From: Squalus acanthias
Taxonomy: Eukaryota
DNA length: 64,000 nucleotides
Direction: 5' to 3'
NCBI GenBank assembly: GCA_030390025.1
Contig: CM059432.1
Location: forward strand, 620,001-684,000
Made by a program: the position numbers and the translations under genes
The notes under the pieces: generated by a model
Told to the model about the DNA's origin: nothing
Seen by the model: the letters and a program-made list of their open reading frames with translations, nothing else
Databases searched by the model: none
Shown: positions 32,701-40,249 of the stretch, piece after piece
How the letters are laid out: each line of letters begins with the position of its first letter
How positions within the stretch are numbered: the first letter of the stretch is position 1

Positions 32701-33298
32701 AGAATGATAAAGAACAGATGTTGCCAGGATCAGCTGAGACTGGCAGAAGTGAGGGATTTTGAACTTGAAAACTGCTGAAAGTTTGGAGTAGCAATTACTG
32801 CAGCTGGGAATATTTGCAGCAATTTTTTTTGGCATTCAGCCTAGACAACCTTGCACTTGCTTTTGACTGCCTGTGAGAGTGTGAGCCCAACTGAGTGTTG
32901 TTCAGGAGCAGTTATAGAAAGAACCTGCATTTCTATAGCACCTTTCACAACCATAGGATGTCCCAAAGCACTTCACAACCAATCAATTACTTTTGAAGTG
33001 TAGTCACTGTTATAGCGAATCATGATTTGCACACAGCAGGATCCCAAAAATCGTCTGTAAGATAAATGACCAGATCATCTATTTTAGTGATGTGGGTTGA
33101 GGGATAAATGTTGGCCAGGACACCAGGAGAACTCCCTTGCTGTTCTTTGAATAGTACCATGGAATCTTTTGCATCCACTTGAGAGGGAAGATGGAAGCTT
33201 AGTTTAACATCTCATCTGAAAAACAGCAGCTCTGACAGAGGGTAGCCCTCTCGCCTCTGAGTCAGAATGTTGTTGGTTCAAGTCCCACTCCAGAGACT

Positions 33299-33836
33299 TG
33301 TCGAAGTTTCGACTTCCGAGTAAGACTCTCTAAACATAAAGTATCGTCAAAGACAGGCTTTATTATTTACTTGCAGCAAGGAGAATGCATGCAGTCAACG
33401 GCTACTTGACATTCTGAAGAATCACAGAAAATGGAACATCTTTATACACTGAAAATACAAGCTTTCTATATCACATGACATGTTGTTTAAAGTAAGCTAA
33501 GTTAAAAGTTAAAAAAATAGAAATGCCTTACGATGAGACTAGCTAATCTCTACAGTCATGGAGTCTGTCTGTCTGTTCTTCTTCTCCCACCAAGGCCAAG
33601 GTATCTGGATGTTTACTTCACTAGTCCTTGGTTATCTCAAGTTGATTAGAAGAAGCCTTTTTGTTCTGTACCAGCAGACTATGAAAACAACATAGTCTGC
33701 AAAGTTTAAATTCATCTCCATGAGAAGTCATAAACAACTTTATCTTTTCCCAAACAAGTCAGAGTCGGCCATTTTGTATCACTCTTTCTGTGTCTAGGAA
33801 GCCATTTTGTGTCCGAGACAAAAATACACTTCCACA
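33299..33836 (-). repeat. 3' LTR (538 bp), preceded by PPT AAAAAGGGGGGAA
   Basis: About 4 visible differences from the 5' LTR; TATAAA at 33441-33446; AATAAA at 33359-33364. Confidence 0.95.
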
Positions 33837-34069
33837 TTCCCCCCTTTTTGTCCTTCTAGGACAAAATAGCTCAATTTAACTCTTTCGGTCTCTCCTGTCG
33901 GTTCCTGTACCAAATTTGAATTTTGGCCAGGGATGCCAACTTCTTTTCTGTTTTAACCATCCTCAGGATTATACCTGTATTGATGGCTGACCTTATTTAA
34001 GATCGTCTCTCCTTTCTGTCTATCCTTAGGGTTGGGCATGTAATTCTTTGAATTCTAATTTGTCCAGTT

Positions 34070-35414
34070 TTAATTTTGGCCACTGTAACTGGCATCATCT
34101 TGGTCATCTAATCCGTAAAAATTTATCTTACTCAATCGCCTTAGCTCTTCCCCTAGGGGACTGTTCTTCTCTTCTTCTTCATTTACTTCCCTCTGTACCA
34201 TCATACTTCCTCCAGGTATAACTGCCTTACCTAGCCTATTACAACAGCATTTAATCATTGTGACAAACAGAATTACTGCTACCATTACTACTAGTCCATG
34301 CAATAATATTTGTCCCATTGATCCCAGCCATCCTCCCAGTATCCAGTCAAACCATCCTTGGCTCTTTGGATTCTTATACTGACTCACTGCATCTCTTATG
34401 TGTTTAACTATGTTAGTTATATTTTCTGAACTGTCTGGGATATAGGTACAACATTCACTCCCTATCAAAGCACAAGTTCCTCCTTTATTCGCCAACAGAT
34501 AATCTAATGCCATTCGATTCTGCAATGTCATTACTCTTATAGCTACCATTTCAGCACTCATTTCGGACAATCCTTCCTCAGTTTCATTTGCCACTTTTTC
34601 TATCAGATCTGCTAGCTCGTTTACTTCTTCCATTAACTTCCCTATTCCGTATGGGGCTATTAATACGCCAAAGACTCTTTCATAAGTTGCTATCTCTCTT
34701 TTACTCCTTTGGAATTCATGATGTTCTCCTATCTTGTCTAAAATGTGGATATAAGGTACTACATAACCCAAATAGCAGGACCCTGTCCAGTTATGTGGCA
34801 ACCATGGATAAGCCTTGTTCCCGCATATAAAATAGGTGCAATTATAGGCCGTCAAGTTACCCTCTCCTCCCATCCATATTCGGATAGGGTCGCCTGTCCA
34901 GGGGGACCTACTGGTTTTATTATTTACTTTAGTCCAGTCAAACTGAAAAAATCCCTGCTCAAGCAGGCCAGGAACTCTCTCCGACTTTCTTTTCATCCTG
35001 CATCCTGCTTACTGCAGCCTGCTTTTTAAAACATAATGCCCCTTGTGGTCTACCAACTCCTGAGGTATTAGTTAATACAAGAAACGGGGGTGTTCGAGTA
35101 TGATTATAATTGGGCTGATACCATCCCTGAAAGCTGGTTAGGTTATACCCTGCTGATCTGCACTGTTCTACATCTGAGGTCTTATCCGGATCCCTTGAAC
35201 TGTTTCTTCTTATTACCCATTCTGCTGTTTCGGAAGTATTAAAGGGAATTGATCTGAGGAGGATCCCTCCCGTGGTGTGAATAGGTATATGGGCACAGAC
35301 CCAACAACTAGATCTACCACTAGTTTTAGCATGCTCGTAAGACATGTACAAGAAAGTGTTAACATGTAATTCTCGTTTCTTTCGGGATCCTTCCCCACCT
35401 CTTTGGCACGTCAT
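34070..35414 (-). pseudogene. env: Gamma-type envelope (SU-TM), frameshifted near 34965
   Basis: CWVC motif, WTGSCYLG, furin site RSKR, fusion peptide, immunosuppressive domain LQNRMALDYLLANKGGTC, CX6CC (CALIGSECC), TM helix and cytoplasmic tail. Confidence 0.92.
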
Positions 35415-35474
35415 GCGTATCAGTCCGATTAATATTTAAAATATATGTAACAGCTTCATTGTTTAAGTCCTTGT

Positions 35475-35535
35475 TTGGTGCTTTCTTGCAATGGGATGCG
35501 TGGATCCAGGTAGATCTTTCCTTGACTTTTCGACT
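35475..35535 (-). pseudogene. Integrase C-terminal remnant
   Basis: KVKERSTWIHASHCKKAP, the gamma/epsilon-type integrase-end WIHASH motif. Confidence 0.75.
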
Positions 35536-36019
35536 CCATTTTTGTCTATTATCCCCCACCCTGTGTTGTTTTGCATTTTACGATTCCCTTATCACTTCTA
35601 TTTGTCTTTTGATGCTTGATATTTGACCTTGCTGGCATTTCTGCTATCTGTTCCTGGCTGCATGTTGTCAGTTTCTGTTCTAAGAATTAAAACCCATCTT
35701 TGAATCGAACAGCTATTTCTTACAATTCCCTTCTTTGAGAAGGAAATAATTCTTATTGACTTCTCACAATCGGCTCTTGACTAATCTGGCTAGTTCTTAT
35801 TGCTCTCTCAATTTGGGCGTTAGTTATCAGTCCATTCCTTTGAGGAGAAGGAGCAACCTCTGACCCTTACTCAAATTCAATTCATTGTTCCAGTATTCCA
35901 ATTCTGCCCCGCCTGGGGTATCCTCTGTTTCTTCTATCTTCCTGATGTTACCCCGCCTGGGGTCTCCTCTACATTGCTTCGGATCTTCTCTTTCGGTGTG
36001 CTCAATTTGTTAGTGCTGG

Positions 36020-37291
36020 TTAGTCATGGGCATGACTACCCAATTGGCTTGTGTATCTTACTACATAGGTTACATATATCAAATACACAGGCCCAGAAAT
36101 TCGCGTGTCCGGCTTGCCGCGGGGGTAAGGATCGCGCGCGCTCTTACCCACCGCGCCTGCCGTTGTGTTTTGGGCCCACAGGAACTTCGGGTCCTGGGCC
36201 TCTCCCAAGAGCTGGCGCGCAGTGCTTGCGTGTTCCAGGGGCGCAGTTAGTGCGATGCGACCCCTGGGATCACGTGGGCCATGGAGAGCCAATGGCAGCA
36301 GACCATCTTTCATTCATAGATTTGACAGGAGACCTGTCAAATCTGTGAATTGAAATCGGCCCCAAAAGAACAGCTAAACTTAAAATAATTTTTTTTAAAA
36401 AACCATCACATTTATAAAATAACTATAGGTAAATAAATTAACCACTTTAAACAAAAATTTAAATTTTTGAAAAAATTAAAATACTTTTTAAAAGTTATAA
36501 AAATAAACTTACCTTTCTTTAAAGTATCTAAAAAAGATAAACCTGTTGAAAAATTTTTAAAATTATACTTAATTAACCACTTACCTAGTTCAAAAGGGTT
36601 CTTACGCCTCCTTTTTATTAGCGTAGAATCTTCAATACTTACCCTTGCGTGGAAACCTGAAAAAAAATCTAAGTGTGCTGCGTGCGCGCAGCCTCTAGCG
36701 CGCACGCGGTTCACCTAGGAACCGCCCCCTTCACCATACCGGAAGTTCCGGTTTCCCGCGCATGCGCAGTGCATGCAGGAAACCGGCACTTCGGGAATCA
36801 ATACGGGTGAGTACACACTGTGTACTCACGCGGGAAGGGCTGAATTTTTGGGCCACTATCATTACAAGTTGGAGAACTACCAGAACGTGTGAAATAATAC
36901 AAATCTAAGGGTGTGCTGATATATTAAACCCAATATCCCACCAGTGTGAGTTGTCCCCTATGCTGTCAATTTCAATATCTATTCTCGAGTTGTCTTCCTT
37001 CAAAACATAAAAATGCTTTAGGGAGGAGTTCAGTCGCATCATGAGCTCACTGATAACCTTAGACAACAGGGGAATGTCGTATCCGAATTGTGCCACATAA
37101 TTGTGCAGCTCATACTTAAGTACCTCATTTACTGTCAGTTTCACTTGAGCACAGGTTTCAATATTATGTAAAATGTGTTGATTGATGGGACAGGTCCAGT
37201 TAGACCCGTAAAGCATGGTAGTTGCGGTAGTAGTGACACAGGAGGTACCACCAAAACCACCACATACTGGATTCGCACTGGTTTTTCCCAC
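36020..37291 (-). pseudogene. C-terminus of an env-like type I membrane protein (non-gamma), split by a MITE
   Basis: Cys-rich segment, helical IPLLSKVISELMMRLNSSLKHF, HWWDI, one in-frame stop, then a hydrophobic TM ICIISHVLVVLQLVMIVYLIYVTYVV that is continuous only after removing 36090-36854 plus 3 bp. Confidence 0.6.
36090..36854. mobile_element. Harbinger-type MITE inside the provirus
   Basis: TIR GGCCCAGAAATTC / GAATTTTTGGGCC; imperfect 3-bp duplication ACA/ACT; GC-rich arms around an AT-rich core. Confidence 0.75.
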
Positions 37292-39049
37292 GCTCTGTTA
37301 CCTACAAAACACAATTATTACAGTCACTGTTAAATTCAGTCTTACAATCATTTCAAGCAACATTACAATTTAACATCTAATCAACAAATCATGGACTTAA
37401 AAGATTCTCCAGATCGCTCTTTTTTTTTACTCGTATCCATATTGTGGATAATTCTTACTAAACATGATTTCTCCTTAGCCCTCAATTGTCCCAATCCAGA
37501 TTCCAGGTAACTCTCCACTTCAACTTCAATTTCCAATCCCTCTAACAGGTACCAGTGTGTTTAACTCTATTCTGTTTCATTAATTAGATAGTTTCTCGAT
37601 GGAGTATGTGTCAATGCTTTAAAAGTTGTCTCGCTCTCCTGAACCATATTACCCATTTCATGTCTTGCTGTTGTCAAGTAACTGAGCTTGTTTGAGACCC
37701 GTTCTTCAGTGCAGATTCACCATACATTTCCAGATGGTAATTGCTTCATACGTAACAAATCACATTTGCACACATCTCAATATCATGCCACATGTGCCTT
37801 TCTCGGGCTTTCAGGTATCTTATCAAAAGATTGTCTTTGTTCATCTTCCTCTGCATGGTTCCGATGCCTTGGATAGTGGCCAGGCTATCAAATTCAGTTT
37901 TCTTAAAAGTTCATTATAGGCAGGGACACAAATGTCTCCAAGAGAAAGCTATCAATTTATTATTCTTAGCTACACTTTCCTGACTTTCACCAGAAAGTTT
38001 TTAAAAATTCCCATTCAGCAGTGTAATTCTCCTGTTTCAATCTTACACCTTCAATCACTCCCCTTTAATTACTATTCATATCTCATTCATGAGCCCTGGA
38101 GAAACTTTACTGTCCAGTACAATATTTAAGATTGAAAACATAGATCAAACATTCTCACTAGGTCCAAGTTATTAACACTTTTTTTATTTATCATTATTTT
38201 AGAGGATCTTTTATTTTTCCAAAAGTAACCCAATATATAGTGCCTGAGTCCATTTTGTCATTTCAACATTATCCCAAAATCCAAACAGCAGTATTATTGA
38301 ACTGACAGGTTTTGTCAATGTTCAATTTCATTTCTATCAATTTATCTTATCAATTCCAATTTCAGAAACAAATGATTTCCAGGCTAGGTGGCTTACACAG
38401 TGTTTTAACATTAGAGACAGAAGTGCTGCAATTAGTTTACAAGGTAACTTCCATATAACAAAAGAAAGAAGAGAATCCATTGTGACTCTGCTTAGAGCCC
38501 AAGGGGTTAATTTATCAAATCATAATTTTCCTTCTGGGAAATGTTAAATTAAAATTAAGAAACTTAAATTTAAGAATGTCCAATATCTTTAAATGTCATA
38601 CTAAAGTTGTTGCTCGGTGAACTTAAACAGCTGTCAGTGGAAAGGGTTAACTCCTTTGCAGGTCTTTAAGAAGGTGGAGCGAAACATTGTCAGGCGCACG
38701 TAATTGCGTCACTTTACGTAAATTAAAAACATTTTTCCCGATCGAAAAAGACAGTTGTGTTTTCATACTTTAACTGAACATGAACAGAACAGATAAAACA
38801 AAACAAACTAGTACATGCTTGTAGAAAACCATAAATCACATCATATTTCTTATAACTGGAGAAAAATTAGTTTTTCACACTTAAGCAAATCAAATCAAAC
38901 TGCTTTGGAAGATTTCACCATAGCAACTGCGACTCCAAGGTTAAATCTTAGACCGAAACTTAATCTTTTGTTAAACAAACTTTTTGTTTTTCTTCTCAGT
39001 TTTTACACACCAGCTTAACTTAAATTGTAGTTCAAAGTTTTTTTTTCAA

Positions 39050-39520
39050 TTCTTGGGGCACAATCTATTGCAGCCACACATCGTGGCATTGCCTTCGCTA
39101 CTGGATCCCTCTTTAACTAACCGTTGAATCGGCTCTGCTTTCCCTGCAAAGTCTGATATAAAATTCCTGCAGTAGTTAAATTGTAGTCCCAACACTTTCC
39201 TCACTCCCCGGATGGTCACTGGCCTTGGCATGTCTTTTATGGCTGCCTTTGTTTCTGCAGGAGTGCCTTATACCCCTGGTTAATTTCATGTCCTAGATAC
39301 TTTACTTTGGACAGTCCAACCTGTACCTTTTTTTGGGGTTCAATTTAAAGCCAGCTTTCCTTTGGCATCCTCTGATGCAATCATTATGTCATCGACATAT
39401 TGGAGTAGGGCACTCTGATACTTTGATAGGTCTAACTCGTCTAAGGCTTGACTCAGTACATGGTGGAATATATTTGAATTATTGTGGAACCCCTGCGGGA
39501 CCCTGATCCATGTATCCTGT
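39050..39520 (-). pseudogene. pol: Retroviral reverse transcriptase remnant
   Basis: TWIRVPQGFHN, LLQYVDDIMIAS, KKVQVGLSKVKYLGHEI, PRPVTIRGVRKVLGL(Q)FNYCRNFISDFAGKAEPI; deletions and frameshifts. Confidence 0.85.
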
Positions 39521-39544
39521 CTATCCCTGACATTGGAGTAGGGC

Positions 39545-39562
39545 ATCTCGGTGGAACCTCCA
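39545..39562 (-). promoter_or_regulatory. Primer-binding site, tRNA-Gln
   Basis: TGGAGGTTCCACCGAGAT, complementary to the 3' 18 nt of vertebrate tRNA-Gln(CTG). Confidence 0.9.
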
Positions 39563-39570
39563 AGAAATAC

Positions 39571-40107
39571 TGTCGAAGTTTCGACTTCCGAGTAAGACTC
39601 TCTAAACATAAAGTATCGTCAAAGACAGGCTTTATTATTTACTTGCAGCAAGGAGAATGCATGCAGTCAACGGCTACTTGACATTCTGAAGAATCACAGA
39701 AAATGGAACATCTTTATACACTGAAAATACAAGCTTTCTATATCATATGACATGTTTTAAAAGTAAGCTAAGTTAAAAGTTAAAAAAATAGAAATGCCTT
39801 ACGATGAGACTAGCTAATCTCTACAGTCATGGAGTCTGTCTGTCTGTTCTTCTTCTCCCACCAAGGCCAAGGTATCTGGATGTTTACTTCACTAGTCCTT
39901 GGTTATCTCAAGTTGATTAGAAGAAACCTTTTTGTTCTGTACCAGCAGACTATGAAAACAACATAGTCTGCAAAGTTTAAATTCATCTCCATGAGAAGTC
40001 ATAAACAACTTTATCTTTTCCCAAACAAGTCAGAGTCGGCCATTTTGTATCACTCTTTCTGTGTCTAGGAAGCCATTTTGTGTCCGAGACAAAAATACAC
40101 TTCCACA
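39571..40107 (-). repeat. 5' LTR (537 bp)
   Basis: TGTGGAAGT...ACTTCGACA termini; TATAAA and AATAAA present. Confidence 0.95.
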
Positions 40108-40249
40108 GACTTCAGCACAAAAATCTGGCCTGACACTCCCAGTGGCAGTACTGAGGGAGCGCTGCACTGTCGGAGGTGCCGTCTTTCAGATGAGATGTTA
40201 AACCGAGGCCCCGTCTGCTCTCTCTGGTAGATGTAAAAGAAATGAAAGA

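Follow-up and report, generated by a model that had tools for sequence, protein, structure and literature searches.

Background

Recombinants between class III and class I retroviruses are already known. In the accessible part of bioRxiv 10.1101/2021.11.23.469661, class III endogenous retroviruses (ERVs) of anamniotes with a Pol related to that of snakehead retrovirus (SnRV) carry a gamma-type Env, and Env-Pol incongruence is frequent; the available portion of PMC4422223 has SnRV-like and epsilon-like ERVs coexisting in the elephant shark (CmiERV lineage I). We analysed a 64-kb window of the 3.7-Gb Squalus acanthias assembly (contig CM059432.1) and describe a provirus on its minus strand, at positions 33299-40107 of the window. 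Its long terminal repeats (LTRs), integrase tail and gamma-type envelope gene (env B) belong to one retroviral lineage, and its middle holds a reverse transcriptase (RT) remnant and part of a second envelope gene (env A, encoding protein A) from elsewhere. We consider it likely that this copy is a dead deletion derivative of a non-autonomous family of at least 58 copies, in which template switching replaced a class I pol by a 4.8-kb SnRV-like cassette and which used the enzymes of its parent. The locus belongs to a well-resolved cross-class recombinant family with a dead second envelope.

As in the ERV-SA.a-Ppe type, insofar as its description was available, the family reflects recombination between class I and SnRV-related class III elements, known in fish and amphibians, with a gamma-type Env placed after class III pol sequence. 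That type was inferred from tree conflict, whereas both parents of the present family are found in one genome and its junctions are resolved to the base; unlike that type, the family has no working pol and retains a remnant of the donor's env, which is related to the paramyxovirus fusion (F) protein, together with the donor's polypurine tract (PPT) and U3 region. In the motifs of its RT and RNase H, the donor of the middle resembles SnRV, judged by eye from the alignment rows of the PMC7947760 supplement. Of that SnRV-like lineage the window element holds only a 426-nt scrap of RT and an env tail.

Trans-mobilised non-autonomous ERVs and acutely transforming retroviruses keep their cis signals, lose their enzymes to foreign sequence that replaces pol, and need a helper. 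In contrast to both, what was captured here is the defective genome of another lineage, with no sign of a useful gene. A literature search covering few subscription papers returned neither an account of the mosaic family nor a report that members of the SnRV clade have an F-like Env; the supplement of bioRxiv 10.1101/2021.11.23.469661, which deals with ERV lineages of six cartilaginous fish and lay outside that search, may include the backbone family.

Copy number and composition of the mosaic family

Searching the genome with the LTR yielded 1355 candidate loci, the best 40 of which matched at 93-100% identity. Among the full-length copies chosen on LTR pairs alone (n=5), all carried the RT remnant and the filler that follows it, four carried env A and one the transmembrane part of env B. 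The same order of parts was found in 19 further loci, a biased sample in that most were chosen by RT or env A matches. Two patterns of 5' junction between backbone and cassette were each present in 29 copies genome-wide (at most 2 mismatches, 0 control matches), and their sum gives the family at least 58 copies. LTR pairs of the siblings showed about 3 to 14 differences in 330-610 nt, with the exception of one outlier. LTRs, primer binding site (PBS), PPT and target site duplications (TSDs) are kept, pol is absent, copies are many and an autonomous relative exists, as expected of a non-autonomous ERV family.

The family is real and not an artefact of assembly, because at least 58 copies share its 5' junctions. 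An assembly chimera or a chance juxtaposition of unrelated parts has a negligible probability given that the same order of parts recurs on many contigs with different flanks and with LTR pairs of their own, and that a perfect target duplication surrounds the window copy. A first-pass annotation, made from the letters of the window, had described the element as gag-less; this is true of the window copy, but its siblings retain part or most of gag and the total loss is private.

The class I parent

Using the siblings' protease as a query, we retrieved many copies about 92% identical to it, lying within open pol frames of 1190 codons. Eight of these parent copies were fetched and have the layout LTR, same PBS and leader as the mosaic family, gag, pol, env B, LTR; one of the eight has the window-type LTR. 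The 5' LTR of the window is 86-90% identical to a pol-bearing parent copy, and DNA identity to parent copies is 88-94% across its integrase tail, its env B and its 3' end. We refer to this family as lineage 1. Its Pol aligned to the RT-RNase H of murine leukaemia virus (MLV) with 521 bits, and its RT fell in an 18-row class I clade of a 54-row tree together with walleye epidermal hyperplasia virus 1 (WEHV-1) and bird and reptile gamma-like rows (support 100/100); within this clade, the grouping with WEHV-1, on the epsilon side, had a support of 96/77 only. Parent ages overlap those of the mosaic family, and a helper would have inserted in the same period because LTR identity reaches 98.7-100% within five of the six parent pairs.

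In the window, the integrase-end motif lies at 35508-35491 and env B shows a CXXC motif (35306-35295), a furin site (34708-34697), an immunosuppressive domain (34525-34502) and a CX6CC motif (34474-34448), with a Pfam match to TLV_coat (E 4.9e-16). These features are those of a gamma-type Env and a gamma/epsilon integrase end, as the first-pass annotation had read them, and the parent family is a plausible candidate for the helper with the same PBS that it had suggested looking for. Two lesions break env B in the window copy: an in-frame stop early in the gene and, near 34968, a deletion of 35 nt. By sequence comparison, the LTRs, integrase tail and env B are those of a class I, epsilon-leaning family with complete and recent copies in the same genome. 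In two parent copies (L045 and L046), the LTRs are identical over the compared stretch and most of env is deleted, which suggests recent envelope-free spread within cells.

Origin of the RT remnant

The RT remnant begins 13 nt past the PBS, matches RVT_1 in Pfam (E 4.9e-7) and is broken by a 40-nt deletion and small indels. It is 85% identical (gaps counted) to a second family, hereafter lineage 2, with 20 mismatches in a 467-column alignment to one copy; lineage-1 pol gave no comparable DNA match to it. Lineage 2 has a complete pol but differs from lineage 1 in gag (with two zinc knuckles), protease, PBS and LTR; its env is not of gamma type and is a homologue of protein A, and Pfam found RVP and zf-CCHC in it and no foamy families. 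To build the RT tree, 4 of 80 candidates that covered too little of the RT were removed and fewer Gypsy outgroup rows were kept; the resulting 54 rows comprised neither SnRV nor labelled loki, foamy, beta or lenti rows. Both RT pieces of the window, entered separately, nested in lineage 2 (100/100) and outside the class I clade, and lineage 2 itself lay within an 18-row clade of fish and shark sequences (96/91), outside class I (100/100). Constraining the window RT to group with lineage 1 cost 158 log-units (approximately unbiased test, p-AU 1.95e-5, 31 rows); the first-pass annotation had specified this grouping ahead of any tree. The two-lineage chimera proposed in the first-pass annotation is upheld, and neither of the two sequence-based outcomes that it had named against itself was observed: the RT remnant does not group with the clade of env B, and protein A does have a viral glycoprotein homologue.

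The donor of the middle is probably SnRV-like (class III) and not foamy- or loki-like, judging from its sequence. The RT thumb scored 38-41 bits to MLV RT against 31-32 bits to foamy RT. Lineage-2 Pol aligned to MLV in one stretch through the tether and RNase H (289 bits), whereas foamy alignments ended by residue 515, and its RNase H aligned to MLV RNase H, with no foamy RNase H among the matches listed. In the rows seen of the PMC7947760 supplement, SnRV shares by eye the lineage-2 motifs DI.NGFWSI.L.EE.Q, QYTWTR.PQGFH.SP.IFH, K.NPKK, LGLFN.CR and SAQVAELVAL, and the two loki RT rows inspected there differ from lineage 2 in RT and thumb motifs. Both the RT and the RNase H of the donor look orthoretroviral, while the available part of PMC7947760 places the RT of lokiretroviruses as sister to all retroviruses and groups their RNase H with that of foamy viruses.

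A lokiretrovirus or a foamy-like virus as donor is, with this evidence, very unlikely, although it would account for the envelope: an F-like Env is a hallmark of lokiretroviruses in the part of PMC7947760 covered, with a signal peptide, furin site, fusion peptide, coiled coil and anchor as in the Env compared here, and the fold search with the env A family finds paramyxovirus and pneumovirus F. Among solved structures, moreover, the integrase of lineage 2 matches that of foamy virus (PFV) best (119 bits). This match weakens the case for an SnRV-like donor, as does an assignment made by eye from a published alignment with SnRV outside the tree. Homologue searches returned no named SnRV, foamy or loki Pol, and a scan of viral contigs found no relative. 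The spuma/loki-like RT of the first-pass annotation stands in the loose sense of class III; its closer kinship to those viruses does not, the thumb being closer to MLV and the motifs matching SnRV.

The env A remnant

Protein A aligns to the tail of the lineage-2 env (32% identity, E 2e-20) and, by hhalign (98.7%), to a family with 40 members from sharks and frogs, which makes it viral, an envelope remnant, as had been suspected from the letters. The window copy covers profile positions 354-503 of 542 (E 3e-24) and the siblings extend to position 514; signal peptide, furin site and fusion peptide are missing, and a stop precedes the membrane anchor. Pfam gave no match to protein A and, for its 40 family members, only GP41 (E 0.04), and a PDB sequence search with the lineage-2 env returned chance matches only. 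We modelled a full-length natural relative (P0048; pLDDT 65, pTM 0.41) and used the model in a fold search, obtaining the F proteins of human parainfluenza virus 3, respiratory syncytial virus and henipavirus (best E 6.6e-11; TM-score by target 0.42, a modest value). Atlas leads, with low recognition value, agree on an F-like fold, and the model suggests that the env A family folds like paramyxovirus F. Because the identity to lineage 2 is so low, env A is, on sequence grounds, from a relative of lineage 2 and not from lineage 2 itself, and the cassette was already a patchwork.

Env A is a decayed passenger and not a working second envelope. The stop before the anchor is present in 19 of 22 siblings, stops precede and follow the env A frame in most copies, and the 130-codon frame carries a stop in 148 of the best 150 genome matches. 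The ratio of nonsynonymous to synonymous differences (pN/pS) is 1.04 against other families, and miniature inverted-repeat transposable elements (MITEs) have inserted into env A in three copies. The MITE of the window lies inside the protein A region, where the first-pass annotation had seen it, and is absent from the siblings at that site. A virus with two envelopes, or an env A retained for some role of its own (a secreted fragment that blocks the receptor, for example), would fit the more frequent retention of env A than of the env B transmembrane part in LTR-picked copies and an acceptor-like AG just upstream of the frame. It would also fit a within-family pN/pS of 0.52 (66 non-independent pairs, 118 codons), which is below neutral and counts against a mere passenger. 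Since only profile positions 354-514 are present, with no signal peptide, furin site or fusion peptide, and in view of the stops, the MITEs and the between-family ratio, we regard such a function as highly improbable. The element does have two envelope sequences of different type, as had been claimed, but both are broken and env A is only a dead 3' third.

Candidate loci for the env A part number 1838. Frogs (Mantella, Bombina, Discoglossus, Pelodytes and Xenopus) and other sharks also have full-length proteins of the F-like envelope family (P0064, P0077, P0079, P0092, P0105), one of them being labelled "Ig-like domain-containing". The nearest named relatives of the window proteins are shark proteins.

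Junctions of the cassette

Between protein A and the integrase tail, the first-pass annotation had placed a spacer. It exists, but it is not plain filler: its 3' end consists of another PPT followed by 202 nt from a U3 that belongs to a third family with little coding sequence (family C). Copies of family C (L033, L057, L058) have a tRNA-Leu-type PBS and the layout LTR, filler, env A tail, PPT, LTR, with neither gag nor pol; this family is probably the bulk of the env A candidate loci. The foreign U3 meets the integrase tail at an 8-nt microhomology (35530-35523), a junction found in 12 copies genome-wide. We surveyed 3' junctions in 31 sequences (27 family rows, 2 without a row and 2 from other families) and identified five types among the 27 family rows (7, 9, 2, 8 and 1 copies), all of which leave the foreign U3 at positions 198-335, upstream of its sole AATAAA at 710. 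At the 5' side, a single junction for the family was rejected, two types being present. Type II passes from gag near codon 128 into the cassette at an 8-nt microhomology; in type I, parent gag 365-564 and protease are interposed and the cassette is entered 15 nt further on. The window-type siblings are of type II and hence already without most of gag. Splicing as a source of the 5' junctions was ruled out, as there is no GT/AG at the breaks. The 5' and 3' types occur in mixed combinations, from which we infer repeated exchange between co-packaged RNAs.

The alternative that we weighed most seriously is a nested insertion, in which a family-C provirus landed in a lineage-1 pol and then lost its 5' LTR and poly(A) signal, along with most of the surrounding pol, through deletions at the level of either DNA or read-through RNA. 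It resembles retroviral transduction of cellular genes and needs no packaging of one lineage's RNA by the other. Nested insertions are frequent in these proviruses and every 3' exit precedes the foreign AATAAA; the five 3' junctions are also not mutually derivable by deletion alone, and any shared ancestor must have held 333 nt or more of the foreign U3 as well as lineage-1 sequence from the integrase tail onwards. The 3' junctions are explained equally well, however, if jumps to helper RNA recurred, and in the type I 5' form parent gag-protease is added within 15 nt of where type II has its junction, for which a second RNA template is required. The long nested ancestor was not among 65 fetched stretches, none of which came from a search aimed at it. 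On balance, we hold nested insertion to be rather unlikely and prefer template switching between RNAs.

Related cassettes occur in other proviruses. In L042 (with L051 and L052), only 90 nt of the foreign U3 follow the same cassette before an RNase H/integrase begins that has 48-52% identity to lineage 2 but 32-33% to lineage 1; another gamma-type env comes after it, making L042 a second class III by gamma-Env recombinant. L034 (with L055 and L056) has 930-nt LTRs, a tRNA-Leu-type PBS, SnRV-like RT pieces, a lineage-1 integrase end and a gamma-type env, and this provirus also holds two different F-like env tails in tandem.

A private deletion anchored at the PBS

In the window copy, a deletion begins exactly at the last base of the PBS. 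The PBS runs into the shared leader in all 26 related copies with this PBS (18 siblings and 8 parents; 39 loci tested), and the PBS-RT junction has one match genome-wide (at most 2 mismatches) and is absent from the other 39 of 40 RT matches. The 12-nt insert at the junction is copied from 133 nt downstream in RT, where the 14-mer recurs at 39412. Compared to the closest siblings, about 1.9 kb is missing, leader included; an earlier estimate of a 2.9-kb private deletion was rejected, as those siblings hold about 1.9 kb there. Read-through into the tRNA was ruled out as the source of the insert, which is not tRNA sequence.

Plus-strand strong-stop DNA ends at the PBS, and the leader is the usual site of the packaging signal. 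The private junction looks like an error of second-strand transfer with one short slip, the gag-less form probably originated during the same round of copying as the insertion itself, and loss of the leader would make the window copy a dead end. The closer precedent for a PBS-anchored deletion is reportedly the work of Pulsinelli and Temin in 1991. In the part of PMC12657518 available to us, aberrant second-strand transfer in HIV-1 (human immunodeficiency virus 1) gives, within a single round of reverse transcription, defective proviruses in which a large deletion has its 5' end at the PBS or close to it. The HIV-1 cases in that part start upstream of the PBS or carry tRNA read-through, whereas the window deletion starts at the last PBS base, bears an insert templated from the landing region and is fixed in the germ line. 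Recent mobilisation in trans, as the first-pass annotation had it, agrees with a non-autonomous family and a plausible helper sharing PBS and leader, but the gag-less form is one copy that never spread.

Proposed origin

The cassette is the body of an already defective second-lineage element (RT scrap, filler, the last third of an F-like env, PPT and the start of a U3). RT would then have jumped between lineage-1 RNA and cassette RNA at the 8-nt microhomologies in gag and in the integrase tail, and further jumps to helper RNA may have given the second 5' type and four more 3' types, all ahead of the foreign poly(A) signal. Having kept the LTRs, PBS, leader and PPT of lineage 1, the family could have been packaged, copied and integrated by the Gag-Pol of the parent. 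In the window copy, plus-strand strong-stop DNA would have landed wrongly in the RT remnant, copied 12 nt and slipped back by about 130 nt, removing about 1.9 kb with the leader; this deletion would explain near-identical LTRs around a gutted interior and the failure of this form to spread. The MITE sits in env A in this copy only.

Several points weigh against this account. Microhomology is slight or absent at the type I 5' junction and at three of the other 3' junctions, the 8-nt microhomologies fit RT jumps but equally end joining at the DNA level, co-packaging and trans-mobilisation are themselves only inferred, and the assembly is the one source for the private junction.

A more speculative extension is that the cassette acts as a portable cis module with a role in packaging, dimerisation or RNA export, by which an RNA could travel in the particles of either retroviral class. 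If true, it would explain the presence of the cassette in at least four unrelated backbones (lineage 1, family C, L034 and L042) and of env A in about 1800 candidate loci, as well as the retention of the cassette while gag, protease and env B are shed; we think this unlikely.

Feature coordinates and age

The two LTRs of the window copy differ by 3 substitutions and 1 one-base indel over 538 columns, have TG...CA ends and are flanked by matching 4-mers, in agreement with the count of about 4 in 538 given in the first-pass annotation. Their distance of 0.0056 corresponds to 1.3 million years at 2.2e-9 or 12.8 million years at 2.2e-10 substitutions per site and year (rates from the available part of PMC4422223). 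The label "young" stands for an age between these two values, depending on the rate assumed. The PBS, read as tRNA-Gln from the letters, is indeed an exact complement, over 18 nt, of the 3' end of a host tRNA-Gln gene in the same genome, and ARAGORN called tRNA-Gln in 3 of 4 fetched loci. Coordinates of all features are given in Table 1.

Table 1. Features of the provirus and its target site, in window positions, from the 5' to the 3' end of the element
Feature	Position	Strand	Remarks
TSD, upstream copy	40108..40111	-	4 bp, perfect match to downstream copy
5' LTR	39571..40107	-	537 nt; class I backbone family (lineage 1)
PBS, tRNA-Gln	39545..39562	-	18 nt; 8 nt past LTR end
Templated insert at private deletion junction	39533..39544	-	12 nt; identical to RT sequence 133 nt on
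RT remnant (palm and thumb), probably SnRV-like lineage 2	39107..39532	-	YVDD at 39399-39388
AT-rich filler of captured cassette	37301..39106	-	Mostly non-coding; also in other non-autonomous families
Env A remnant, last third of F-like envelope	36855..37300	-	Profile match
MITE	36090..36854	.	765 nt; 13-nt terminal inverted repeats; in env A membrane-anchor codons
Env A end and 3' untranslated stretch of donor element	35739..36089	-	
Internal second PPT, from donor element	35725..35738	-	Same as sequence preceding 3' LTR of family-C copy
Foreign LTR start, first 202 nt (family C U3)	35523..35724	-	96.5% to family-C LTR
Lineage-1 integrase tail, last 22 codons	35467..35530	-	95% to parent pol residues 1169-1190, in siblings
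Env B, gamma-type, lineage 1	34070..35459	-	Broken in window copy
PPT before 3' LTR	33837..33850	-	
3' LTR	33299..33836	-	538 nt
TSD, downstream copy	33295..33298	-	4 bp

The PBS lies 8 nt past the terminal CA of the LTR (window 39563-39570), as it does throughout the lineage (L043-L050; 6 nt in L043). The gap between PPT and LTR is only 2 nt, which implies an unusually long U5 overhang trimmed at integration. The MITE family, possibly of Harbinger type and with an imperfect 3-nt duplication, has inserted independently in or beside related proviruses (L005, L019, L026, L048, L064). A tandem array of tRNA-Gln type, with about 90 listed units at a spacing of about 1190 nt, was found elsewhere in the genome (G000:C21:3347821-3475405, L069). 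The rest of the window, outside 33299-40107, is dense in short and LINE-like repeats, and the provirus is flanked by degenerate copies of a short interspersed repeat.

Significance

The locus reveals no new gene and no working two-envelope virus. Cross-class recombination is usually inferred from tree conflict, whereas here the parents, a defective intermediate and the junction types coexist in one genome, and a route by which gamma-type and F-like envelopes are swapped can be read at base resolution. The window copy provides a germ-line example of a PBS-anchored strand-transfer deletion, and a classification based on RT would misfile the mosaic family into the wrong class.

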